IMG/VR virus record: IMGVR_UViG_3300044732_000442
Coordinates: 32,001 to 96,000 of that record
Source: a virus
Strand: one strand, 5' to 3'
DNA length: 64,000 nt
Shown: positions 31,500 to 45,662 of the stretch, piece after piece
Numbering within the stretch: position 1 is the stretch's first letter
Layout: each line of letters starts with the position of its first letter
The notes under the pieces: generated by a model
What the model was told of the DNA's origin: nothing
What the model saw: only the letters and a program-made list of their open reading frames with translations
The model's database searches: none
Translations under genes and position numbers: made by a program

Positions 31500-34213
31500 G
31501 TTATGTGGATGCTATTCATAGTAGGGATGAGGATCGTATCTATGTAGTAGAACGATCTCCTGAGGGTAAACGATTGTATAAAGAATACCCTACTAACTAT
31601 GTATTGTATTATCCTGATAATAAAGGTAAACATCGTAGTATCTATGGCGATCCAGTCAGTCGTTTCAGTACTCGCAAACGACAAGAGTTTGAAAAAGAAA
31701 GACGCATACACTCAAATAAAAAACTATTTGAGAGTGATGTGCCAGTAGTCTTCCGTTGTCTAAGTGAAAACTATCTTGGCATTGATGCACCTAAACTTCA
31801 TACATGTTTCTTTGACATTGAGGTGGACTTTGATCCTGAAAAGGGATTCAGTCCTACAAGTGATCCATTCAATCCTGTTACAGCTATCAGTTGTTACTTA
31901 GATTGGCTAGATCAATGTATTACATTAGTGATTGCTCCTAAACATATGTCTAGTGAAACAGCACAAGAAATCACTAATGAGTTTGAGAATACAATGCTAT
32001 TCACAAACGAAAAAGAAATGTTTGATGTGTTCTTCCAACTCATTGAAGATGCAGATGTATTAACTGGTTGGAACTCAGAGGGCTATGATATACCCTATAT
32101 GGTCAATCGTGTTACTAGAGTAATGAGTAAAGATGACACACGCAAGTTCTGCTTGATGGGTCAACTACCTAAAGCTAGAGAATACGAACGATTTGGTAAG
32201 AGTGAAACAACTTATGACTTAGTAGGTCGTATTCACTTAGACTATCTACAACTATACAAAAAGTATAACTATGAATCACGCCATAGTTATAAACTTGATA
32301 GTATCGGTGAGATGGAAGTCGGGGAGAACAAAACACAATATGAAGGTACTCTTGACCAATTGTATAACAAAGACTTTAAAAAGTTCATTGAATATAACAG
32401 ACAAGATACAATGTTGTTAGTGAAGATTCACAACAAACTTAAGTTTTTAGAATTAGCTAATCAACTTGCACACGAAAACACAGTACTGCTTCCAACAGTT
32501 ATGGGTTCAGTAGCAATGATTGAGATGGCAATTTTTAATGAAGCACACGAACGTGGCTTAGTGGTTCCAGATAAAAAACGAAAGGTTGAAAATGAAGAAG
32601 ATGTCCAGCAGGCAGCAGGTGCCTTTGTTGCTACGCCGAAAAGAGGTATGCATGAATATGTCGGAGCAGTTGACATTAACTCACTCTATCCCTCGGTTAT
32701 TCGTGCCCTCAACATGGCAGGTGAAACCATCGTTGCTCAAGTCAGACAAACAATCACTGACAAATACATGCTTGACAAAGGTGTGCGATTAGCAAGTGAA
32801 AAGAAACGTCACAAAGAAGGTGATGATGCAGTTACAGGATCTATCTTATGGGAGAACCTGTTTGGTGCATTAGAATATACTGCTATTATGAACCAAGAAC
32901 GTGGTACTATTCTTACAGTTGATTTTGAAGATGGTCGTAGTGTAGAAATGTCAGCGGCAGAAATCTGGAAGATGGTCTTTGACAGTCATAAGCCCTGGAT
33001 GTTAAGTGCTAACGGTACTATCTTTACTTATGAAAAAGAAGGTGTCGTACCCGGTCTACTAACTCGTTGGTATACAGAACGTAAAGCTATCCAGAAACAA
33101 GCTAAAGAAGCATATGGTACTGATATGTTTGATTATTATGACAAGCGACAACTTGTTCGTAAGATTTTACTTAACTCAGCATACGGTGCATTGTTAAACG
33201 AACATTGCAGATTCTATGACAAACGTATCGGTCAAAGTGTTACACTATCTGGAAGACAAATCGTTAAACATATGATGAGTACTATCAATGAAACAGTTGA
33301 AGGTATCTATTCACATGAAGGTAATGCTATTGTGTATGGTGATACTGACAGTTGTTACTTCACTGCTTATCCAACATTAAAGCCGCAGATTGAATCTGGT
33401 CTATTAGATTGGAATAAAGAAACTTGTATTGGTTTGTATGATGGTATCGCTGAACAAGCAAATGAAAGTTTCCCAGCATTCATGGAACGTGCCTTTCATG
33501 CTCCAAGAAAGAACGGAGCTATCATTAAAGCTGGTCGTGAACTAATCGGTGATCGGGCGATCTTTATTGTTAAGAAGCGTTATGCTATTAACATCTTTGA
33601 TAAAGAGGGTAAGCGCAAAGATAGTGACGGACAACTAGGCGATATCAAAGCTATGGGTCTTGACTTGAAACGTGCTGATACACCTAAGTATGTACAAGAG
33701 TTTTTAATGAATGTACTACAAATGGTTCTTCAACAAGGTAAAGGTCGTGATGAAGTTATTGAAGCAGTAAAAGACTTCAAGCGGATATTAACTGCACAAG
33801 ATAGTTGGACAAAAGGTTCTCCTAAAGGTGTAAACAAACTTACGATGTACGGTGACTTAGAAGCTAAGAGTAGTACGGGCAGAGCTAACATGCCGGGGCA
33901 TGTACGTGCGGCATTGAACTACAACTATTTGCGTAGAGTAAACGGTGACCAGTATAGTCAAAAGATTATTGATGGTATGAAGGTTGTAGTATGTAAACTT
34001 AAACCCAATCCATTAGGGTTTACAAGTGTAGCATATCCTGTTGATGAATTACGACTACCCAAATGGTTTACAGAATTGCCATTTGATGATTCGGCAATGG
34101 AACAAACGTTAGTAGATGAGAAGATTGATAACTTATTGGGTGTATTAGATTGGGATATTCGTAGCAATACAGATACTAACAGTACATTTGATGACTTATT
34201 CAGTTTCGGTTAA
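31496..34213 (+). CDS. DNA polymerase family B (T4 gp43-like)
   Basis: Exo FDIE, WNSEGYD, YNRQD; pol DINSLYPS, KILLNSAYG, YGDTDS, KKRY. Confidence 0.97.
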   Translation: MSYVDAIHSRDEDRIYVVERSPEGKRLYKEYPTNYVLYYPDNKGKHRSIYGDPVSRFSTRKRQEFEKERRIHSNKKLFESDVPVVFRCLSENYLGIDAPKLHTCFFDIEVDFDPEKGFSPTSDPFNPVTAISCYLDWLDQCITLVIAPKHMSSETAQEITNEFENTMLFTNEKEMFDVFFQLIEDADVLTGWNSEGYDIPYMVNRVTRVMSKDDTRKFCLMGQLPKAREYERFGKSETTYDLVGRIHLDYLQLYKKYNYESRHSYKLDSIGEMEVGENKTQYEGTLDQLYNKDFKKFIEYNRQDTMLLVKIHNKLKFLELANQLAHENTVLLPTVMGSVAMIEMAIFNEAHERGLVVPDKKRKVENEEDVQQAAGAFVATPKRGMHEYVGAVDINSLYPSVIRALNMAGETIVAQVRQTITDKYMLDKGVRLASEKKRHKEGDDAVTGSILWENLFGALEYTAIMNQERGTILTVDFEDGRSVEMSAAEIWKMVFDSHKPWMLSANGTIFTYEKEGVVPGLLTRWYTERKAIQKQAKEAYGTDMFDYYDKRQLVRKILLNSAYGALLNEHCRFYDKRIGQSVTLSGRQIVKHMMSTINETVEGIYSHEGNAIVYGDTDSCYFTAYPTLKPQIESGLLDWNKETCIGLYDGIAEQANESFPAFMERAFHAPRKNGAIIKAGRELIGDRAIFIVKKRYAINIFDKEGKRKDSDGQLGDIKAMGLDLKRADTPKYVQEFLMNVLQMVLQQGKGRDEVIEAVKDFKRILTAQDSWTKGSPKGVNKLTMYGDLEAKSSTGRANMPGHVRAALNYNYLRRVNGDQYSQKIIDGMKVVVCKLKPNPLGFTSVAYPVDELRLPKWFTELPFDDSAMEQTLVDEKIDNLLGVLDWDIRSNTDTNSTFDDLFSFG

Positions 34214-35022: not shown

Positions 35023-35387
35023 TTAAGAGCATTCACTCTAGTAGTCCATTCTTAACTGTATCAGGTGGTAATCCAGGTTCTACTTATATTGGTAATTTTA
35101 ATGGTACTGGTGTGGGTAATATGCGATATAACCCTAACAGTCAGAACACAGAAGTATATGATGGTAGTACTTGGATTATTCTCTCGGCACATCACGCTAC
35201 TATAAACTTAAGTGATGAAGCAGTTGGTTTGTTACAGTGGGCACGACAAAAGCGTGATGAGGAACTTGAGATAGAAAAATTAGTACTAACTAATTCAACT
35301 ATCAAAGACCTCGTTATGCAAATTAAAGACAAACAAGAACAAATTAAAGTAGTTCAAACATTGATAAAAGAAGAAGTAAAAGTTTAA
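35019..35387 (+). CDS. Hypothetical protein
   Basis: Coupled ORF, C-terminal coiled coil. Confidence 0.6.
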   Translation: MIKSIHSSSPFLTVSGGNPGSTYIGNFNGTGVGNMRYNPNSQNTEVYDGSTWIILSAHHATINLSDEAVGLLQWARQKRDEELEIEKLVLTNSTIKDLVMQIKDKQEQIKVVQTLIKEEVKV

Positions 35388-36961
35388 TGGAACAAGATAA
35401 TCTATCACAAAAACAAAACCCAGATTGGGCATTGTTCTTACCCGCAGTCAGTAGTTTTTATATCTCTGGCTTGGGTAAACAACGTAAAGGTGAAGAGTAC
35501 TTTGATCCTGCACGTATCCCTGCTCAATTCAACGGTGATGTAGAGAAACTAAACTTTCTTAATAGTAAAGAAGGTCTCTATTATTACAAATGGGGCTTGT
35601 ACAGTGCTGGTCATGCTAACTTAGATACTACTAAAGACGATCCTAGTGAATCAATCATTAGAGAACGTGAAGAAGGTACATTTATGTTAGGTGACTCTGG
35701 TGGATTTCAAATTCTTAAAGGTCAATGGCCAGCTGATTGGAAAGATCCTAATTGCCCTAAAGCTATGATTAAGCGTAAAGCAGTATTGAACTGGATGGAC
35801 ACGTACATGGACTATGGCATGGTCCTTGATATTCCTTCACAATCAATAACTACTTTTAATATGAAGGATAAGAATGGTGTAAGTCTTCATGGTATCAGTA
35901 CTATCCAAGAAGCAATTACTGCTACCCATATTAACAATGAATACTTTATCAACAATCGTTCGGGCAAATGTAAGTTCTTAAATGTATTACAAGGTCGTAC
36001 ACATACCCAGTCAGATGAGTGGTACGATGAAATGAAGAAGTATTGTGATCCAAAACAATACCCAGACAATCACTTTAATGGTTGGGCTTTCGGTGGACAG
36101 AATAAGATTGATGTACACTTGATGTTAACAAGAATGATTGATATTATCCATGATGGGTTATTAGTAGAAGGTAAGCATGATTTAATTCACTGTTTGGGTA
36201 CAAGTATTTTAGAATATGCTGTATTGTTTACTGATATTCAACGTGCTATTCGCAAGTATCACAACCCTAAACTTAAAATTACATTTGATTGTGCAAGCCC
36301 ATTCTATAGTGCGGCTAAGGGTTTAGCATATTTCAATACTAATATTGAGCATAACAAGAAATGGTCATACAGTATGGAAAAGACTGCTGAAAAGAAAAGT
36401 TATGCTAATGACACCCGTAAATATAGGGATGCTGTATTAGCTGAAGGAATCCATAAACTCTTTACAGATAGTCCAGTAACTGATAAACTAGTGCTTAAGG
36501 ACTTGTGTTATCGTGGTCAAGGGTTCTTAGGACAACATGGTAAAGAAACTAAGACCAGTTGGGATACATTAAGTTATACATTGCTTCAAAGTCATAATGT
36601 ATGGATGCACATGAATGCCGTACAAGAGGCTAACCGTCAATATGATATAGGTATTGTACCTAAGATGTTGATGAATGAACAATTTGAACGTGTATTGTTT
36701 AAAGATGTTATTGACGAAATTTTCAGTAAGAAAACTAAACAGGAAGCAATTGATTTAATTGATGCTAACAGTAGATTATGGATGCAGTTTCAATCAGGTA
36801 GTCAGGGTATTAGTGGTAAACGAACAGTTAATGCATTGAGTAAGTTTGAAGAACTATTTGAAGTTCAGAATGAAATAGAGTTTGAAGAAGTAATAGAAGA
36901 TAGTGATGATGCTATGAATGAAGTATTACATGAAAAGGTAGATTTAGATGATGACAATTAA
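35387..36961 (+). CDS. dpdA: tRNA-guanine transglycosylase-fold protein, DpdA-like DNA 7-deazaguanine insertion enzyme
   Basis: TGT motifs DSGGFQ, MVLDIP, VLQG, GWAFGG, HCLGTS, FDCASP, HNV; clustered with folE/queD/queE. Confidence 0.78.
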   Translation: MEQDNLSQKQNPDWALFLPAVSSFYISGLGKQRKGEEYFDPARIPAQFNGDVEKLNFLNSKEGLYYYKWGLYSAGHANLDTTKDDPSESIIREREEGTFMLGDSGGFQILKGQWPADWKDPNCPKAMIKRKAVLNWMDTYMDYGMVLDIPSQSITTFNMKDKNGVSLHGISTIQEAITATHINNEYFINNRSGKCKFLNVLQGRTHTQSDEWYDEMKKYCDPKQYPDNHFNGWAFGGQNKIDVHLMLTRMIDIIHDGLLVEGKHDLIHCLGTSILEYAVLFTDIQRAIRKYHNPKLKITFDCASPFYSAAKGLAYFNTNIEHNKKWSYSMEKTAEKKSYANDTRKYRDAVLAEGIHKLFTDSPVTDKLVLKDLCYRGQGFLGQHGKETKTSWDTLSYTLLQSHNVWMHMNAVQEANRQYDIGIVPKMLMNEQFERVLFKDVIDEIFSKKTKQEAIDLIDANSRLWMQFQSGSQGISGKRTVNALSKFEELFEVQNEIEFEEVIEDSDDAMNEVLHEKVDLDDDN

Positions 36962-37638: not shown

Positions 37639-37842
37639 ATGGCAAAACAACAACAATCTAACCCACGTGTTCAACAAATCTTTGAGGACCTAGAAAACTA
37701 TCTAATGTTCTGTCAGGACTATGGATACAAGTTTGATGAATCAACTCTATACGATATGCGTAGCTTTGCATATCGTCAGTTTACTAAGGCAGTAACTGGC
37801 AAGTGGGCTAAAGATCAGTGGCAGGAAGACGCACGTCCATGA
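37639..37842 (+). CDS. Hypothetical protein
   Basis: aagga RBS; 67 aa. Confidence 0.6.
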   Translation: MAKQQQSNPRVQQIFEDLENYLMFCQDYGYKFDESTLYDMRSFAYRQFTKAVTGKWAKDQWQEDARP

Positions 37843-38600
37843 ACGTTGTGTTAGTCACTGGTGGTTTTGATCCGCTACATAGTGGTCATATTGAATATTT
37901 CAAGGCTGCTAAGGCATTAGGATTTTTACTAATAGTAGGAATCAATAGTGACGCATGGTTGACCCGTAAAAAAGGACAACCTTTTATGCCTGTACAGGAA
38001 AGAAAAGCTATCATTGAGAATCTATACCAAGTACATAAGGTAATAGAATTTGATGATAGTGACGATACTGCTATTGATGCTATTCGTAAAGTCAAAGAGA
38101 TGCACCCACAAGCAAAGATAATATTTGCTAATGGGGGAGATAGAACTAAAGATAACATTCCCGAAATGGTTTTTCATGATGTTGAATTTGTTTTTGGAGT
38201 AGGTGGTGAAAACAAACTAAACAGTAGTAGTTGGATACTAGATGAATGGAAACATCCAAAAACATTGCGTGAGTGGGGGTATTATCGTATACTACATGAT
38301 GTAGATGGTTGTAAAGTTAAAGAATTAACTGTAGAGCCAGATAAAAGTTTAAGTATGCAACGACATTTTAAACGAAGTGAATACTGGTTAGTAACTGACG
38401 GTTCTTGCATTGTTTATAGACAAATGAATGGCGGGTATGCATTACCTCCCATGCAGTTAAGTAAACATCAAGAGTTTAAGATACCAGCTGATTCCTGGCA
38501 TCAACTATCTAATCCTTTTGATGAACCATGTAGTATTATAGAAATTCAATATGGTGAAAAATGTATTGAAGAAGATATTGAAAGAAAAACAAATGCGTAA
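37839..38600 (+). CDS. Cytidylyltransferase-like domain fused to mannose-6-phosphate isomerase-type cupin
   Basis: TGGFDPLHSGH, NSDAWL, ANGGDR; C-terminal WGYY...LSMQRH..RSEYW...IEIQYG. Confidence 0.85.
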   Translation: MNVVLVTGGFDPLHSGHIEYFKAAKALGFLLIVGINSDAWLTRKKGQPFMPVQERKAIIENLYQVHKVIEFDDSDDTAIDAIRKVKEMHPQAKIIFANGGDRTKDNIPEMVFHDVEFVFGVGGENKLNSSSWILDEWKHPKTLREWGYYRILHDVDGCKVKELTVEPDKSLSMQRHFKRSEYWLVTDGSCIVYRQMNGGYALPPMQLSKHQEFKIPADSWHQLSNPFDEPCSIIEIQYGEKCIEEDIERKTNA

Positions 38601-39771
38601 ATTATTTTATATGGGGCTAGAACCCTACAAAGCACGTTATACTCTACAACTACAAGAATGGAATGAACGTGTCTTTAAACGTAGAGGTATTAACTATGTT
38701 ATCGTTCCAGGCGAAACATTAAGTAATGACCAAGCTATTGTGACGGGACAAGTATTAGATGCACATGGTCGTACATACTTTGGTATGTCACAACTTATGA
38801 ATTTAGTTAAAATGATGAAGGCGGGTGAGTGTAGTGATGAAGATATTGTCTATTTTGAAGATATGTTTCAACCGGGTATTGAGAGTTTGCCGTATATACT
38901 TAAGCAAGTTCCTGCTAATCTCCGTCCTCGTATATTTGTCCGTTGTCTTGCTCAGTCAATCGATCCGGATGATTTCGTACATGTATGGGGAATGAGTGAA
39001 TTCATGGGTCACTATGAAAAGATGGTTGATTCATTCGTTGATGGCGTACTAGCTACAAATGAAGAAATGATTATGCATATGAAGATTGCGGGATGGAAGG
39101 CACCATTATATAACATTAGCGGTCTAGCATTTGGTAAAGATGAAGTGCGTGGTCGTATTGATGGTCCATTAAAACCCTTCAATCAACGTAAGATGCGTGT
39201 AGCATTTAGTGCAAGATGGGATCAAGAAAAACAACCAGACTTCTATATGGATTTGATTGAAACATTTCATTCTAGGTCTAATACTAAGGTAGAGTTCTGC
39301 GTGTTCAGTGGTAGTAAACTGAAAAGCAATAACGAAAGTTATATGGAACGTACACGTAAACTTCAAAGTGAAGGTAAACTAGTTATCTATGAAGATTTGG
39401 AAAAGAATGATTACTATCAACTATTAAATGATACTAGAGTATTGTTTAACTGTGCTTTGCAAGACTGGGTAAGTAATACAGTTAGTGAAGCAGATACATT
39501 GGGTTGTAATGTATTATATCCGGCATATCGTTCATTCCCAGAAACGTTTGCTAATGATAATACACGATTATATATTCCTTGGAGTATTGATGATGCTATG
39601 TCTAAATTACAAAATTTATTGATGGCACCACATAACTATCAAGGACGTATTAGTAAATACAATGATGGGACTATTGACCGTATCTGTGATATTATGGAAG
39701 GCAATGGAGAACAATATTTACGCATGACTAGTGATTATCGTAAATACACAAGAGAAACAAAATACTCATAA
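38593..39771 (+). CDS. Glycosyltransferase (GT-B fold)
   Basis: ARWDQEKQP and QDWVSNTVSEA (GT4-like motif); two-domain size. Confidence 0.72.
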   Translation: MRKLFYMGLEPYKARYTLQLQEWNERVFKRRGINYVIVPGETLSNDQAIVTGQVLDAHGRTYFGMSQLMNLVKMMKAGECSDEDIVYFEDMFQPGIESLPYILKQVPANLRPRIFVRCLAQSIDPDDFVHVWGMSEFMGHYEKMVDSFVDGVLATNEEMIMHMKIAGWKAPLYNISGLAFGKDEVRGRIDGPLKPFNQRKMRVAFSARWDQEKQPDFYMDLIETFHSRSNTKVEFCVFSGSKLKSNNESYMERTRKLQSEGKLVIYEDLEKNDYYQLLNDTRVLFNCALQDWVSNTVSEADTLGCNVLYPAYRSFPETFANDNTRLYIPWSIDDAMSKLQNLLMAPHNYQGRISKYNDGTIDRICDIMEGNGEQYLRMTSDYRKYTRETKYS

Positions 39772-39983: not shown

Positions 39984-40211
39984 ATGGCTCGCAAGAAAAT
40001 TCAACTTGCAGAAGTTAGTTCATTGCCAGACTCAGTACAAAAAGGTAGTCACTTAACGGTGACTACTTATCCTGATGGCAAAACAGAATTAGAATGGGAT
40101 TGGGACGCATTAGTTAATGAGGTACGTGAAGCCTGCGCTAGTGTTGAACTTGCCAATACAAAGCCGGCAGTTAAGGCTAAATCAAAAAAATCAGTTGCTA
40201 AAACAAAGTGA
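39984..40211 (+). CDS. Hypothetical protein
   Basis: 75 aa ORF. Confidence 0.55.
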   Translation: MARKKIQLAEVSSLPDSVQKGSHLTVTTYPDGKTELEWDWDALVNEVREACASVELANTKPAVKAKSKKSVAKTK

Positions 40212-40277
40212 TAAATACTTGTGTTACACAACGGTAACACAATATCAAAACAAAACCATCACAAAGGAAGGTTATCT

Positions 40278-40961
40278 ATGAGTTATAATAAAACAAAAAC
40301 CGATCCAGTACTGGGTCTACAAGTACACGAACACTTAGTTAGAATGGGTGTTGAGACTCCTACAATCAAGTCTTTGGTTCCGGATCGTAAAGATAAGATT
40401 GCGGTCATTGAGCCGTTATTTGCCGAGATTATGAAAACACTTGGTTTAGATTTATCTGATGATAGTCTTATTGAAACACCTAAACGTGTTGCCAAGATGT
40501 ATGTCAATGAAATATTTTGGGGTCTCGATTATGAAGCATTCCCTAAATGTACAACAGTTGACAATAAGATGCAATACAACGAAATGGTTGTAGAGCGTAA
40601 TGTTAATGTTCAATCTAACTGCGAACATCATTTTGTAGTCATTGATGGATTGGCTACAGTAGCTTATGTCCCTAAACAAAAGGTGTTAGGGCTTAGTAAG
40701 ATAAACCGTATTGTAGAATATTTTAGCAAAAGACCTCAAATTCAAGAGAGGTTAACAGAGCAAATTTTTCACACCTTACAGTTCATCCTTGATACAGAAG
40801 ATGTTGCAGTTATGATTGACGCACAACACTATTGTGTAAAATCACGCGGCGTAGAAGATACAGGTAGTAGCACTGTTACTTGTCGTTTAGGTGGTGGTTT
40901 CAAAACTGATCCATCAGCACGACAAGAGTTCTTACAAATTGCTAACAAAGGTTGCAAATAA
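40278..40961 (+). CDS. folE: GTP cyclohydrolase I
   Basis: [40 protein letters not shown]. Confidence 0.96.
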
Positions 40962-41197
40962 TGGGCTTTCGTAAACAAATGGACTATAACAGTGTTCATC
41001 ATCAAATCTATATGAGTGGTGTAGAACTACATAGTAACTATAATGACGGATTTAATCAATTTGAAATCAAAAAAGACTTACATCGGATCAAATGGCTATT
41101 GGATGAGATTATAGCCGATAGTCCTACATTTGCCGGTGAAGATGAATTCTTAAAAGAACACGAACAAACTAAGATGTGGAGAACTCTTTCAAAATGA
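40961..41197 (+). CDS. Hypothetical protein
   Basis: ATG overlaps folE stop. Confidence 0.55.
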   Translation: MGFRKQMDYNSVHHQIYMSGVELHSNYNDGFNQFEIKKDLHRIKWLLDEIIADSPTFAGEDEFLKEHEQTKMWRTLSK

Positions 41198-41667
41198 TTT
41201 TCAATCACATTAAAGAACTAAAAGCACAAGGTAAAAAGATTGGTATCACTTTCAGTACATTTGACTTGCTACATGCAGGGCATGTTGCTATGTTAAGTGA
41301 AGCTAAGAATCATTGTGACTATTTGATTTGTGGGTTGCAAACTGATCCTACTATTGATAGACCTGACACTAAGAATAAACCCATTCAAAGTATTGTAGAG
41401 CGACAGATTCAACTTGCGGCTTGTCGTTATGTTGATGAAGTTGTTGTCTATCAAACTGAACAGGACCTTATTGACCTATTACTTATTCTACCATTAGATG
41501 TTCGCATTTTGGGTGTAGAGTATGCAGATAAAGAGTTTACTGGAAGATGGGAGGGCGGTGAGCGTGGCATTGAACTTGTGTTCAATGGTCGTGACCATAG
41601 TTTCAGTAGCAGTAGTTTACGTAAACGGGTAGCTGATGCCCAAATCATTAACACTCTTAATAAATAA
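41194..41667 (+). CDS. tagD: Glycerol-3-phosphate cytidylyltransferase-like
   Basis: STFDLLHAGH, CRYVDEV, RDHSFSSSSLR. Confidence 0.8.
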   Translation: MIFNHIKELKAQGKKIGITFSTFDLLHAGHVAMLSEAKNHCDYLICGLQTDPTIDRPDTKNKPIQSIVERQIQLAACRYVDEVVVYQTEQDLIDLLLILPLDVRILGVEYADKEFTGRWEGGERGIELVFNGRDHSFSSSSLRKRVADAQIINTLNK

Positions 41668-41671
41668 GATA

Positions 41672-41737
41672 ACCGGTCTCTTTGGGCTCATCCCGGTATA
41701 CAAACTCTGCGTCCTATGCTATAATATAACATAGGAG
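41672..41737 (+). promoter_or_regulatory. preQ1-I-like riboswitch candidate plus RBS-sequestering hairpin upstream of queD
   Basis: ACCGG-UCUCUUUGGGCUCAU-C-CCGGU-AUACAAA-CUC; then UCCUAUG/CAUAGGA hairpin covering the SD. Confidence 0.55.
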
Positions 41738-41743
41738 AACACA

Positions 41744-42226
41744 ATGGCAAACAAAAAATTCTTTTCAACAAAAACATACAGACAAATAGGTCCTGTCGCA
41801 TATCGTCAATGGCGTGCTGACAGTCATTGTAACTTAATTCATGGCTATGCTATGAGTTTTCACTTTGAATTTGAAGCAGATACATTAGATGCCCGTAACT
41901 GGGTAACTGACTTCGGTGGATTACGACCACTTAAAGATAAACTAGAAGAATGGTTTGACCATACATTATTAGTCGCACAAGATGACCCAATGCGTGAACA
42001 TCTATTAGAACTAGGTCGTTTAAAACTAGCAAAGATTACAGAAGTAGAACGTACTGGTTGTGAGGGTATTGCTGACTTCTTATATGAATACATTAACACA
42101 ATCTTTTTACCTAACTGCGGTAGTGAAGAAGCAAAACGTGTATGGTGCTGTAGAGTAGAGGTCCGTGAGACTGATAGTAACATGGCAGGACGAGGTGGTC
42201 ACAGGGAAGACGGAGAGTTTGCATAA
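41744..42226 (+). CDS. queD: 6-carboxytetrahydropterin synthase
   Basis: SHCNLIHGY, DFGGL, FDHTLL, TGCE, VEVRET. Confidence 0.88.
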   Translation: MANKKFFSTKTYRQIGPVAYRQWRADSHCNLIHGYAMSFHFEFEADTLDARNWVTDFGGLRPLKDKLEEWFDHTLLVAQDDPMREHLLELGRLKLAKITEVERTGCEGIADFLYEYINTIFLPNCGSEEAKRVWCCRVEVRETDSNMAGRGGHREDGEFA

Positions 42227-43074
42227 TGGCACAACTAAAAATTTCAGAACTATTCTATAGTATACAAGGAGAAGGCCGATATATGGGAGTTCCCTCCGTG
42301 TTCCTAAGAACATTTGGTTGTAACTTTACATGTGCAGGCTTTGGCATGCCTAAAGGTGAAGTAAGTAAAGAAGTAGAAGATATTGCCGCAAGGGTTCACT
42401 ATTATGATGATTATAAAAAACTACCGTTGGTCAGTACAGGGTGTGACAGTTATGCTTCATGGGATCCTAGGTTTAAGCATCTTAGTCCTGTTCGCCCCAC
42501 CGATGATATTGTTGACGACATTATGGCTATGCTTCCTCACAATCGCTGGATGGATGAGCACCTTGTCATCACTGGCGGTGAACCTCTTCTTGGATGGCAA
42601 AGAGCGTATCCAGAACTGCTTTCAAACGAGAAGATGAGGTCATTGAAAGAGATTACATTTGAAACTAATGGTACACAAGAACTAAGTCAAGACCTCTCTA
42701 TCTATCTACAACAATGGAAGATTAACAGAGAAAAGAATGCACTTACATTTAGTGTTAGCCCTAAACTAAGTATCAGTGGTGAGAAGTGGGAAGAAGCAAT
42801 TTGTCCTAGTATTATTCGTCAATATGAAAGTATTGGCTTTGTATATTTAAAGTTTGTTATCGCTACTAAAGAAGATGCATTAGAAGCTGATAAGGCAGTA
42901 CAAGAGTTTCGTAATGGTGGATTTAGAGGCCCTGTATACTTTATGCCATGTGGTGGTGTAGAAAGTATCTATAGTTTGAATGCTAAGAATGTTGCTATTG
43001 AAGCAATGAATCGTGGTTATCGTTATAGTGATAGACTTCAAGTCCCACTGTTTAAAAACGAGTGGGGCACATAA
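42226..43074 (+). CDS. queE: 7-carboxy-7-deazaguanine synthase (radical SAM)
   Basis: ELFYSIQGEG, FLRTFGCNFTC...GCDS, ITGGEP, ETNGT, VSPK, RLQV. Confidence 0.92.
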   Translation: MAQLKISELFYSIQGEGRYMGVPSVFLRTFGCNFTCAGFGMPKGEVSKEVEDIAARVHYYDDYKKLPLVSTGCDSYASWDPRFKHLSPVRPTDDIVDDIMAMLPHNRWMDEHLVITGGEPLLGWQRAYPELLSNEKMRSLKEITFETNGTQELSQDLSIYLQQWKINREKNALTFSVSPKLSISGEKWEEAICPSIIRQYESIGFVYLKFVIATKEDALEADKAVQEFRNGGFRGPVYFMPCGGVESIYSLNAKNVAIEAMNRGYRYSDRLQVPLFKNEWGT

Positions 43075-43324: not shown

Positions 43325-43498
43325 ATGTATGAATTAAGATATCTTGTCCGAAACGGTTATGACGGACCAGAAAAAGTGTTACAATATAGAACACAAAGTG
43401 AAGTAACTGATTATAGTACAACTACCCTTAACGGCAGTTTTACTAAAAAGCGTGAGTGGACTGAATGGCAAGATGTACCTACTGTAAAAGATAAATGA
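43325..43498 (+). CDS. Small hypothetical protein (57 aa, MYELRYLVR...WQDVPTV)
   Basis: Not in track; aagg RBS; stop overlaps next ATG. Confidence 0.6.
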   Translation: MYELRYLVRNGYDGPEKVLQYRTQSEVTDYSTTTLNGSFTKKREWTEWQDVPTVKDK

Positions 43499-44832
43499 GA
43501 ACATACGATAAACGAATTGGCTTCTTAGTAAGCTATCAAACATTAATACCACATGGTGGGATAGGGCAATTTACAAAAAGCTTCTGTGAACTAATGGACC
43601 AACATAATATTAAAGTTGATATCATTACCGATAAAGAACCACAAGATACTGAGTTTGTTAAATCTATCAAAGCAAATGTTATTGCCCCATTAGAATCACT
43701 AAAATATACTGACCACAGCAATATCTTTATGTATGGGGATACATTCTGTTATGAACGAATGGCTAATTTCCGTACAGCAATTGTAGAAGCACTGGAACAT
43801 AATTTGTATGATGTACTGATATGCAACACATATGAAACTGTGCAGGTAGCTAGTACTATGGGACTTGAAGATGTGATTCAAATCATTGCATATACTCATT
43901 TAGAAAGTCAGATATTCACAGACACCAAGAATCCCTTCTTGTCTAACACTAATGTAGCAATGCGTCACCAATTAAGCTTAACGAATATTGATGTGGGTAC
44001 ACAGAGTAAATTCAATCAAGTACATTTAGATGAATCTTCATATCACTTGCCTATTCCTATTACAGAACGTGGATTACTGGAAGAACATCATAAGACACGT
44101 GAAGGTATATTGTTTGTTGGACGATGGGAAGAAGGTAAGAATCCTGAGTTGTTCTTAGACTTGATTGAACAAACAAACCTTCCAGCAAAAGTAATGACTA
44201 GTGCAAATGGTGCAAAGAAGTTTGAAGATAGACTACAGAAGATAGGTGTACCTTACGAAATTCGTGTAGGTATCATTGGTCAAGAGAAAGTTAACTTTAT
44301 GACAAGTGCTAGAATTGCATTCAATCCTAGTATTGTTGAGAGTTATGGTATGGCATTCTATGAACAACATATTCAAATGCCTACATTAGTGTTAGAACAT
44401 CAACGTTGGACTAATAACTTTAACAAAGATTTCTTTTATACTTGTACTAAAAAAGACATGGCAAGTAAAGCAAAAGAATTGTACGATATTTTTGAAAAAG
44501 CAGAAAGATGGTATAACTTGGGAGCATTGCAACATGCACAAGAACAAGAAGCTACTGTCTTTCATAAATGGAACAACTGTTTTAATGATTTTGAACCTAG
44601 AAAATCTAACAGTAATACAGCAAAAATATGCAATGAGACTACAATTAAACACGTTGATTTTATCAGTGATTTGAACCGTAGTATTATTTGTATTGATGAT
44701 GTACGTAGTGTTTTAACCAATAAACATAAATTTAGGGTTATCTATACAGATGACGATACATACTTAACAAAAGATCCAAACTTTGAACCAATAGAAGAAG
44801 CAGAAGGTCTATCATTATTTGAGGGTTTATGA
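43495..44832 (+). CDS. Glycosyltransferase (GT-B, GT4-like)
   Basis: PHGGIG, FVGRWEEGKNP, PSIVESYGMAFYE. Confidence 0.82.
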   Translation: MRTYDKRIGFLVSYQTLIPHGGIGQFTKSFCELMDQHNIKVDIITDKEPQDTEFVKSIKANVIAPLESLKYTDHSNIFMYGDTFCYERMANFRTAIVEALEHNLYDVLICNTYETVQVASTMGLEDVIQIIAYTHLESQIFTDTKNPFLSNTNVAMRHQLSLTNIDVGTQSKFNQVHLDESSYHLPIPITERGLLEEHHKTREGILFVGRWEEGKNPELFLDLIEQTNLPAKVMTSANGAKKFEDRLQKIGVPYEIRVGIIGQEKVNFMTSARIAFNPSIVESYGMAFYEQHIQMPTLVLEHQRWTNNFNKDFFYTCTKKDMASKAKELYDIFEKAERWYNLGALQHAQEQEATVFHKWNNCFNDFEPRKSNSNTAKICNETTIKHVDFISDLNRSIICIDDVRSVLTNKHKFRVIYTDDDTYLTKDPNFEPIEEAEGLSLFEGL

Positions 44833-45662
44833 AAAAGATTTTAATTACAGGATGCTCAGGATACATTGGCAGTCATCTATGCAAAATGCTTGAGAATGAA
44901 TATGAAGTTCATGGCTTAGATATTGATGAACCACAAGCGCCATTGAATGAGTTTTATCGTTGCGATATCAATAGACAATTTGCTATTCCGGGTGATATTG
45001 AATATGATTGTGTAATCCATTTAGCGGCATTAGTTCGTGTAGGTGAAAGCGAGCAGATGCCTATCAAATACTATATCACTAACTTGAATGGTACAATGAA
45101 TGTAGTTAACAAGATAAAGACAAAGAACTTTATCTTTGCTAGTACAGGTGCCGCACAAGATTGTGCTAGTGCTTATGGTATCAGCAAACGTGCCGCAGAA
45201 GATGTGGTCAGAGAATATTGTACAACCCATCGTCAAACACCATATACAATCTTTAGATTTTATAATGTTATTGGAAGCACCGTCGTGGCTCCCACTAACC
45301 CCGATGGGTTAATGTACAATTTAATTAAAGCTAAAGAGTCGGGTGAGTTTACTATTTACGGTAATGATTATGATGTGTCCGTTATTGATGGTACATGTAT
45401 ACGTGATTATGTACATGTTAATGAGATATGTGATGCATTGATGCAAGCAATTGAAAAGCCTAGCAATAGCTTTGAATGCTTAGGACATGGTGTAGGATAT
45501 ACTGTACAGGAGATTGTTGATTTATTTCAAAAAGTCAATGAGTGTAGTTTTGATGTAAAATACGGCCCAAGGAGAAAGGGTGATTTACCTAGTTCTGTAC
45601 TAGCTAATGTATCACCCTATATGCGTAATCTATACACTATGGAAGATTTATTGAAGGTTTAG
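44829..45662 (+). CDS. galE: NAD-dependent nucleotide-sugar epimerase (GalE-like)
   Basis: TGCSGYIGSH, HLAA, YGISK, RFYNV, DGTCIRDYVHV. Confidence 0.88.
   Translation: MKKILITGCSGYIGSHLCKMLENEYEVHGLDIDEPQAPLNEFYRCDINRQFAIPGDIEYDCVIHLAALVRVGESEQMPIKYYITNLNGTMNVVNKIKTKNFIFASTGAAQDCASAYGISKRAAEDVVREYCTTHRQTPYTIFRFYNVIGSTVVAPTNPDGLMYNLIKAKESGEFTIYGNDYDVSVIDGTCIRDYVHVNEICDALMQAIEKPSNSFECLGHGVGYTVQEIVDLFQKVNECSFDVKYGPRRKGDLPSSVLANVSPYMRNLYTMEDLLKV

Follow-up and report, generated by a model that had tools for sequence, protein, structure and literature searches.

The stretch of DNA analysed here (the window, 64,000 nucleotides (nt) long) covers positions 32,001–96,000 of the IMG/VR virus record IMGVR_UViG_3300044732_000442, a 116-kb record of an uncultured jumbo phage with an estimated completeness of 34%. 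On its plus strand, a short gap between a cytidylyltransferase-like gene and a gene for a QueD-like protein encodes an RNA leader made up of two potential helices, P1 and P2, and three loops, L1 to L3, in the order of an H-type pseudoknot. This leader pseudoknot is very probably a real, conserved and phage-specific element. Contigs of uncultured viruses yielded 277 copies of it, with 160 distinct aptamers among them, and in nearly every case a QueD-like gene of family PHROG 2389 follows directly. One strand of P2, the 3′ one, also serves to hide the ribosome-binding site, and the leader is probably a ligand-sensing riboswitch. All of the sequence features quoted in an earlier note on this DNA are present; with the flanking genes, the parts of the locus are as follows.

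40221–40961, plus strand: folE, the first gene in the order given here, followed by a small open reading frame (ORF).
41176–41667, plus strand: cytidylyltransferase-like gene directly upstream of the leader, with its TAA stop codon at 41665–41667.
Between the cytidylyltransferase-like and QueD-like genes, plus strand: leader gap of 76 nt.
41660–41666, plus strand: ATAAATA box resembling a T4-type late promoter (TAAATA at 41661–41666), 5 nt before P1 and overlapping the upstream stop codon.
41672–41676, plus strand: 5′ strand of P1, ACCGG, pairing with 41693–41697.
41677–41683, plus strand: L1, UCUCUUU, with a variable first base, a constant CU next, and a U-rich remainder of variable length.
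41684–41690, plus strand: 5′ strand of P2, GGGC-U-CA, pairing with 41708–41714 and leaving U41688 unpaired; duplex energy −6.0 kcal/mol.
41691–41692, plus strand: L2, UC, in which C41692 is invariant and a candidate ligand-pairing base.
41693–41697, plus strand: 3′ strand of P1, CCGGU, closing a 16-nt loop with 41672–41676.
41698–41707, plus strand: L3, AUACAAACUC, A-rich; with T41697 it also forms the −35-like hexamer TATACA (41697–41702).
41708–41714, plus strand: 3′ strand of P2, UG-C-GUCC, overlapping the 5′ arm of the next hairpin.
41712–41736, plus strand: 7-base-pair (bp) hairpin masking the Shine–Dalgarno (SD) sequence, UCCUAUG (41712–41718) with CAUAGGA (41730–41736); the minimum free energy (MFE) of this platform alone is −7.9 kcal/mol.
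41717–41725, plus strand: extended −10 element TGcTATAAT of an internal σ70-type promoter, 17 nt from TATACA.
41733–41737, plus strand: SD sequence AGGAG, 6 nt before the ATG at 41744 and 19 nt downstream of P2.
41744–42226, plus strand: QueD-like gene of the PTPS family (Pfam PF01242 at 8.7e-16, PHROG 2389 at 3e-41).
42226–43074, plus strand: QueE-like radical SAM gene directly after the QueD-like gene (PHROG 2076 at 6e-52).

The window contains a single copy of the element, and so does the 116-kb record as a whole. A first set of relatives, 80 viral loci found by a search with the QueD-like protein (92–100% identity) and chosen by QueD similarity only, yielded 45 distinct leader sequences, which keep the stem through compensating changes although the upstream gene differs among loci. 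A second set of 80 loci was chosen solely by similarity to a 40%-identical QueD-like protein; the motif model matches 58 of these, about 18 carry a shortened ‘mini’ knot, 2 are cut by the contig end and 2 have no motif. A degenerate 22-nt pattern based on the motif's 3′ half, with an information content of about 33 bits, matched at least 120 stretches of viral DNA, and in nearly all of them a PTPS/QueD-like ORF follows directly. The proteins encoded there are 29–100% identical to that of the window, and every ORF tested belongs to PHROG 2389. When the same pattern was run against 596 Gb of cellular genomes, 103 matches were obtained, compared with about 108 expected by chance according to our own estimate from the information content. 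Among 80 cellular loci listed and scored with the covariance model, the full motif was seen in only two small contigs of metagenome-assembled genomes (MAGs), one from an uncultured Bacteroidetes bin (L220, 5.5 kb, 51 bits) and one from a Crocinitomicaceae MAG (L277, 6.3 kb, 48 bits); these are either misbinned phage DNA or a lead to a Bacteroidota host. A megablast search of GenBank phages returned no match and distant blastn gave short coding matches only, and a literature search on phage, queD and 7-deazaguanine riboswitches found no description of the motif.

The genes that follow the motif are diverse. At L069 (2574–2995) and L132, a 113-residue cupin lies between the motif and queD, and at L143 (4372–5160) the motif is directly followed by a 243-residue ORF with no match in NCBIfam, the sole library run. 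Genes after queD in six loci (L163, L177, L149, L114, L164 and L170) encode a DAO-type FAD oxidoreductase with a radical SAM protein, a DAHP/KDO8P-synthase family protein, UvdE, a methyltransferase with a GDP-mannose-dehydratase-like protein, a phosphoribosyltransferase, FolE2 and a Rieske protein. The QueD-like gene is thus not always within a plain preQ0 operon and, given such wide variation downstream, the constant partner of the RNA is the QueD-like gene itself.

Covariation in the leaders of queD homologues, a check that the earlier note had named beforehand, was found as compensating changes across viral contigs, and these comparisons support the predicted H-type pseudoknot of P1 and P2. 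P1 consists of 5 bp, of which the top two are invariant G-C pairs and the other three covary (AU/UA/GU, GC/CG/UA and CG/AU/UA), giving the variants ACCGG/CCGGU, AGCGG/CCGCU, AGAGG/CCUCU, AGUGG/CCACU, AUCGG/CCGAU and UGCGG/CCGCA. Alignment A1 was made with MAFFT and without fitting to a structure; in it, 77.7% of P2 is paired, compared with 40–51% after sliding of the partner strand. A single position can take as many as six standard pair types, and columns 26 and 51 pair as UA (41), AU (27), CG (16) and GC (7). In alignment A2, obtained from the unbiased second set with P1 fitted to the model, P1 is 100% paired and P2 86%, as opposed to 33–50% for slid partners; none of 500 shuffles reached this level for P2, a figure that overstates independence because the sequences are related, and that is not a true probability. 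A swap test of the P2 duplex gave a mean of −5.89 kcal/mol for cognate strands and −4.66 ± 0.16 kcal/mol for swapped ones, with the cognate value reached in 0 of 300 swaps. P2 of the relatives is 6–9 bp long with a constant U/C mismatch, and the frequent G-U pairs indicate that the structure is strand-specific and belongs to the sense RNA.

The two parts of P2 vary to different extents. Pairs in the GUCC part take four to six standard pair types, and the invariant loop CA pairs with the UG of an invariant UCUGC block; where the A is replaced by G, the U is replaced by C. This switch from CA/UG to CG/CG accounts for 3 GC pairs beside 44 AU pairs in A2, and for 4 of the 163 parsed aptamers. Pairing of the whole UCUGC block with the loop was tried and rejected, as no complement was found and just its UG pairs, with the loop CA. 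The GGG/CUC pseudoknot proposed in the earlier note does not hold up either: CUC (or UUC) is constant while its loop partner varies, and the pairing that covaries joins 41684–41690 to 41708–41714.

With the CA/UG step counted as P2, two bases only separate P2 from the 3′ strand of P1. This L2 linker reads UC in 116, CC in 28, AC in 9 and UUC or CUC in 10 of the 163 parsed aptamers, a number that includes three later dropped as chance matches. L2 ends in C in all of them, as the parser demanded, and C41692 is also invariant in the first, QueD-based set. L1 opens with xCU, in which x is U (71), C (48) or A (41) and the CU is constant, and its third base is U in 160 of 160 aptamers, though U was not demanded by the parser. 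L3, which begins in the window with an A-rich AUACAAA tract directly after the P1 stem, is 10 nt long with a 5-bp P1 and 7–8 nt long with the 3–4-bp P1 of the mini variants. Such a joint change in length is expected if L3 lies along P1, and the sequence of L3 varies in step with the third pair of P1. About 15 of the unpaired positions stay the same even between deeply diverged sequences, and the invariant bases gather at the P1/P2 junction (CU in L1, U-CA-YC and UC-UG-C) in an RNA of 35–57 nt.

Downstream of the same aptamer, four designs of expression platform were distinguished. In the window type, the 3′ strand of P2 continues into UCCUAUG, which pairs with CAUAGGA over the SD sequence, and a compensating variant, CCUAUA/UAUAGG, is present in L182 and L133. 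The second, ‘CAAACUU’ type pairs UGUCGUC with GAUGGCA across the start codon, the third (L074 type) pairs UGUCUUC with GGAGACA, and the fourth (mini type) pairs GCCAUAU with AUAUGGC, of which the AU-rich part covaries. In 157 of 157 leaders, the platform MFE structure has the SD and/or AUG region paired to the 3′ strand of P2, with 6.5 pairs at −8.7 kcal/mol, compared with 4.0 pairs at −5.6 kcal/mol when the strand is shuffled. Because this one strand serves both structures, the knot and the masking helix are mutually exclusive. Their energies in the window are close (−7.9 kcal/mol for the SD hairpin and −6.0 kcal/mol for P2), and P2 can form before the SD arm is transcribed. The leader thus has the make-up of a riboswitch, a conserved aptamer in the 5′ untranslated region (5′UTR) joined to a mutually exclusive platform, with promoters just upstream of P1.

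Since the 3′ strand of P2 is the anti-SD or anti-start strand, formation of the knot should open the ribosome site, making the leader an ON switch. The explanation that we favour, with reasonable though not strong confidence, is that the leader pseudoknot is a sensor that frees the ribosome site when it is stabilized; overall, ON is also the likelier direction of the switch, the direction in vivo being a prediction from the shared strand. The leader RNA of the QueD-like gene would fold into a small H-type knot and work as the sensor, and the 3′ strand of its P2 would at the same time form the 5′ arm of a masking helix over the SD sequence or, in other phages, over the start codon. Most likely, a small ligand bound at the P1/P2 junction would stabilize the knot, upon which the ribosome site would be freed and the QueD-like protein made. 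The same translational ON logic operates in the adenine (add) riboswitch, in which an aptamer stabilized by its ligand draws away an anti-SD strand and leaves the ribosome site free, although its three-way-junction fold is unrelated and its pathway a different one.

Only long transcripts, produced by read-through or from the TAAATA box, would carry the sensor, whereas the internal σ70-type promoter would start inside the hairpin and yield short, unregulated transcripts. In the window, this predicted internal promoter consists of TATACA (41697–41702), a 17-nt spacer and TGcTATAAT (41717–41725). Among relatives the −10 element stays TAnnnT (TATAAT in 56, TAAAAT in 16, TACAAT in 3, and others), at a spacing of 17 nt (63) or 18 nt (20) from a −35-like TATACA or TTTACA. 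The presence of the −10 element is tied to a C in L3 that improves the −35 element (73/7 versus 7/58; Fisher 3e-24, with no correction for phylogeny). Transcription would be expected to start about 7 nt past the −10 element, near 41732, giving a leader that lacks the sensor and the masking arm. The putative promoter box TAAATA precedes P1 by no more than 20 nt in 63 of 102 leaders of group 1, and the commonest distance, also that of the window, is 5 nt. ATAAATA is rarer in the window than expected (21 versus 37.6 occurrences), as is typical of a working promoter word, here T4-late-like, that is kept out of other places; 16 of the 21 sites are on the plus strand, for example that at 40211–40217 before folE. 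In the mini group, a near-consensus TTGACA-17-TATAAT promoter lies upstream of P1, with its −10 box ending 10–18 nt before P1, which places the motif in the 5′UTR. Conservation of the internal −10 and −35 elements and the recurring TAAATA lend support to the dual-promoter bypass suggested in the earlier note.

In overall architecture the motif resembles the preQ1 class I riboswitches (RF00522; types I–III, among them those of B. subtilis queC, T. tengcongensis, C. antarcticum and E. coli), which are likewise leader knots of queuosine or 7-deazaguanine genes. Class I RNAs are H-type pseudoknots with a G-C pair atop P1 and an A-rich L3 in the P1 minor groove. Before their specificity cytosine stands U in type I and A in types II and III, types I and III have UU on the P1 5′ strand, and the P2 of the class includes SD bases (PMC11625349). 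The phage motif has the H-type pseudoknot, the 5-bp P1 with its G-C top, the A-rich L3 right after P1 and a P2 coupled to the ribosome site, and its cytosine occupies the specificity position directly before the 3′ strand of P1 with U preceding, near type I. It departs from class I in that L1, P2 and L3 are all longer, with xCU and a U-rich stretch in L1 in place of UU, a P2 that retains the U/C mismatch at all its lengths, an L2 of 2 nt and a 10-nt L3 ending in an invariant UC. The invariant UCUGC and U-CA blocks have no counterpart in the class I consensus description (PMC11625349). The 3′ strand of P2 is an anti-SD or anti-start strand, in contrast to the SD bases of the OFF-type preQ1-I switches, for a predicted sign of ON, and the motif is found almost only in viral contigs, unlike preQ1-I. 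In size, the mini variants of about 35 nt are similar to class I aptamers.

Searches with Rfam models place the motif apart from the known families. At the gathering threshold, the whole window gave no Rfam match, and at E ≤ 10 no PreQ1 family matched any of three variants: the leader region of the window (41560–41860, 301 nt), L336 of the mini type and L074, which has the AGAGG stem. What did match was chance: PsrR1, sR9, several families of miRNA, and freshwater-2, which aligned through the SD region at E = 0.78. For RF00522, no site in the record scored above 12.8 bits (gathering threshold, 39 bits), a value reached away from the leader, and the same search does find B. subtilis. For a reverse test, preQ1-I sequences were sought in five Firmicutes genomes and none was found. 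The larger preQ1-II RNAs with their embedded hairpin and the preQ1-III RNAs, HLout knots with a distant platform (RF01054 and RF02680), are also pseudoknotted sensors before queuosine-pathway or salvage genes; neither had an Rfam match here. With the architecture shared and the Rfam model, the UU and the SD bases in P2 all lacking, the motif is filed outside the preQ1-I family: it works like a preQ1-I-type knot yet is not a family member.

These comparisons bear on the possibility that the leader is a canonical preQ1-I-type OFF riboswitch, through which preQ1, preQ0 or 7-carboxy-7-deazaguanine (CDG) would repress queD as negative feedback. The shared architecture, including the type I UC before the 3′ strand of P1 and the G-C top of P1 (PMC11625349), and the gene context of folE, queD-like and queE-like genes would suit it. 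We consider it improbable, given the PreQ1 models that pass over three variants while finding B. subtilis, the longer loops and P2 with their extra invariant blocks, and the anti-SD or anti-start strand held in P2 by 157 of 157 leaders, which reverses the sign of regulation. Of the riboswitch proposed in the earlier note, the preQ1-I-like architecture of a conserved, structured queD leader (5-bp P1, invariant C, A-rich L3 and H-type knot), the 7-bp SD-masking hairpin and the promoters have stood; the GGG/CUC pairing, membership of an Rfam preQ1 family and the negative-feedback logic have not, the last because the 3′ strand of the knot implies ON.

The structural evidence would apply equally to a protein-binding site, at which a phage protein (the QueD-like enzyme, or an early or late factor) sets translation. 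A precedent is the T4 gene 32 leader, a pseudoknot that binds gp32 protein and represses; it too is a phage 5′-leader pseudoknot controlling translation, and beyond the knot it has no likeness to the motif in sequence or architecture. Confinement of the motif to phages, its tight bond to one gene family, and a common denominator that is the QueD-like protein with diverse downstream genes, and not a complete pathway, all speak for such a site. Invariant bases clustered at the helix junction of so small an RNA are instead the pattern of a small-molecule pocket, as in preQ1-I, and a nearly unchanged RNA core goes with downstream proteins as little as 29% identical, which is unusual for a co-evolving RNA–protein pair; we regard this alternative as rather unlikely. 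A structure that acts independently of any ligand, by fixed, temperature-dependent or kinetics-dependent translation or by protecting the 5′ end of a long transcript, would be compatible with two states close in energy and with the unremarkable folding energy of the leader given below. The roughly 15 invariant unpaired positions are hard to explain in this way without a specific tertiary pocket or partner, and the chance of it appears small. Least credible is an element of the DNA only, in which the stem would be a terminator or operator of the upstream gene and the rest a promoter. A good σ70-type promoter does overlap L3 and the hairpin loop, and the stem does follow a stop codon in the window. 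Against this, the motif is kept in groups without the internal −10 element, the covarying strands of P2 lie in the loop and in the promoter spacer, G-U pairs function on one strand only, and upstream genes differ among loci; to judge from these comparative data, this reading is largely refuted. The terminator reading was rejected, as no U-run follows the stem and the terminator scan did not list it, and so was a stop-codon read-through or frameshift signal for the upstream gene, as relatives have a different upstream gene or a promoter there.

Several observations weigh against a ligand-sensing ON switch. The 100-nt leader alone has an MFE of −13.6 kcal/mol, with z = −0.13 relative to shuffled sequences; taken singly it folds no better than chance, and the case for a real fold is a comparative one. 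P1 is weakened in four leaders (L087, L120, L185 and L097). The P1 counts of A1 were pre-filtered for pairing and those of A2 come from a fitted helix, and relatedness inflates the shuffle statistics as described above. Conservation of L3 and of the hairpin loop partly serves the internal promoter and not the RNA. As the Rfam PreQ1 models miss the motif, the analogy with the preQ1 binding pocket is one of architecture only, and dependence on a ligand is something that we purely infer. An ON switch before a biosynthetic gene is, moreover, unusual, and no obvious ligand explains it.

If the leader does sense a ligand, the invariant C by the P1/P2 junction suggests one with a guanine-like face. 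Conceivable candidates would be preQ0, preQ1, CDG, guanine, or a pterin such as dihydroneopterin triphosphate (H2NTP) or 6-carboxytetrahydropterin (CPH4), and, given the ON sign, a signal from the substrate side would be a better fit than an end product. The fullest form of the favoured reading is a new phage-specific riboswitch class with a distant likeness to preQ1-I, which would recognize a guanine-face heterocycle of the route from GTP to 7-deazaguanine (the pterins H2NTP or CPH4, or CDG, preQ0 or preQ1), turn the QueD-like gene ON and be bypassed by an early promoter. For this combined proposal we see an even chance.

The protein encoded behind the leader differs from typical members of its family. 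Canonical QueD/PTPS proteins carry the motif CxxxHGH. In the QueD-like proteins behind the phage motif (window 41744–42226 and the ORFs of L163, L184, L099 and L171), CxxxHGY is present. The window protein scores 35.5 bits with the NCBIfam QueD model, below its cut-off of 89, and the motif-associated proteins score 30–36 bits against this equivalog, so that, from sequence, their chemistry may differ from that of bona fide QueD.

Deazaguanine genes in the window are interleaved with two cytidylyltransferase-like genes, two GT-B-like glycosyltransferase genes and one nucleotide-sugar epimerase gene (37818–38600, 41176–41667, 38551–39771, 43495–44832 and 44829–45662); one of the two cytidylyltransferase-like genes is fused to a cupin/mannose-6-P-isomerase domain. 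The presence of these sugar genes among the deazaguanine genes suggests, from gene content, a sugar-bearing modification. QueC (PF06508) and a Pfam-detectable tRNA-guanine transglycosylase (TGT) were not found in the 116-kb record, which represents only about 34% of the genome and cannot show their absence. A DpdA gene was not confirmed by Pfam TGT, PHROG or PDB sequence searches. A 524-residue ORF at 35387–36961 (plus strand) had no Pfam, PHROG or PDB sequence match, and the ESM Atlas gave only a lead (0.93) from it to a cluster of TGT-like proteins; on this unconfirmed lead, the ORF is possibly the DpdA of the gene cluster.

To our knowledge, phage-encoded riboswitches are rare, and we know of no riboswitch class that is phage-specific. 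If the favoured reading is true, the sign of this switch would be opposite to that of every known preQ1 riboswitch, and an RNA sensor and a DNA promoter written in the same bases would be an unusually compact case of dual coding. The mini form, at about 35 nt, is small enough for direct in-line probing and crystallography, and work on the motif could uncover a ligand, or a mode of deazapurine or pterin recognition, that is new. On the favoured reading, many uncultured phages would regulate in this way the entry enzyme of the 7-deazaguanine route, which serves DNA modification and anti-restriction.

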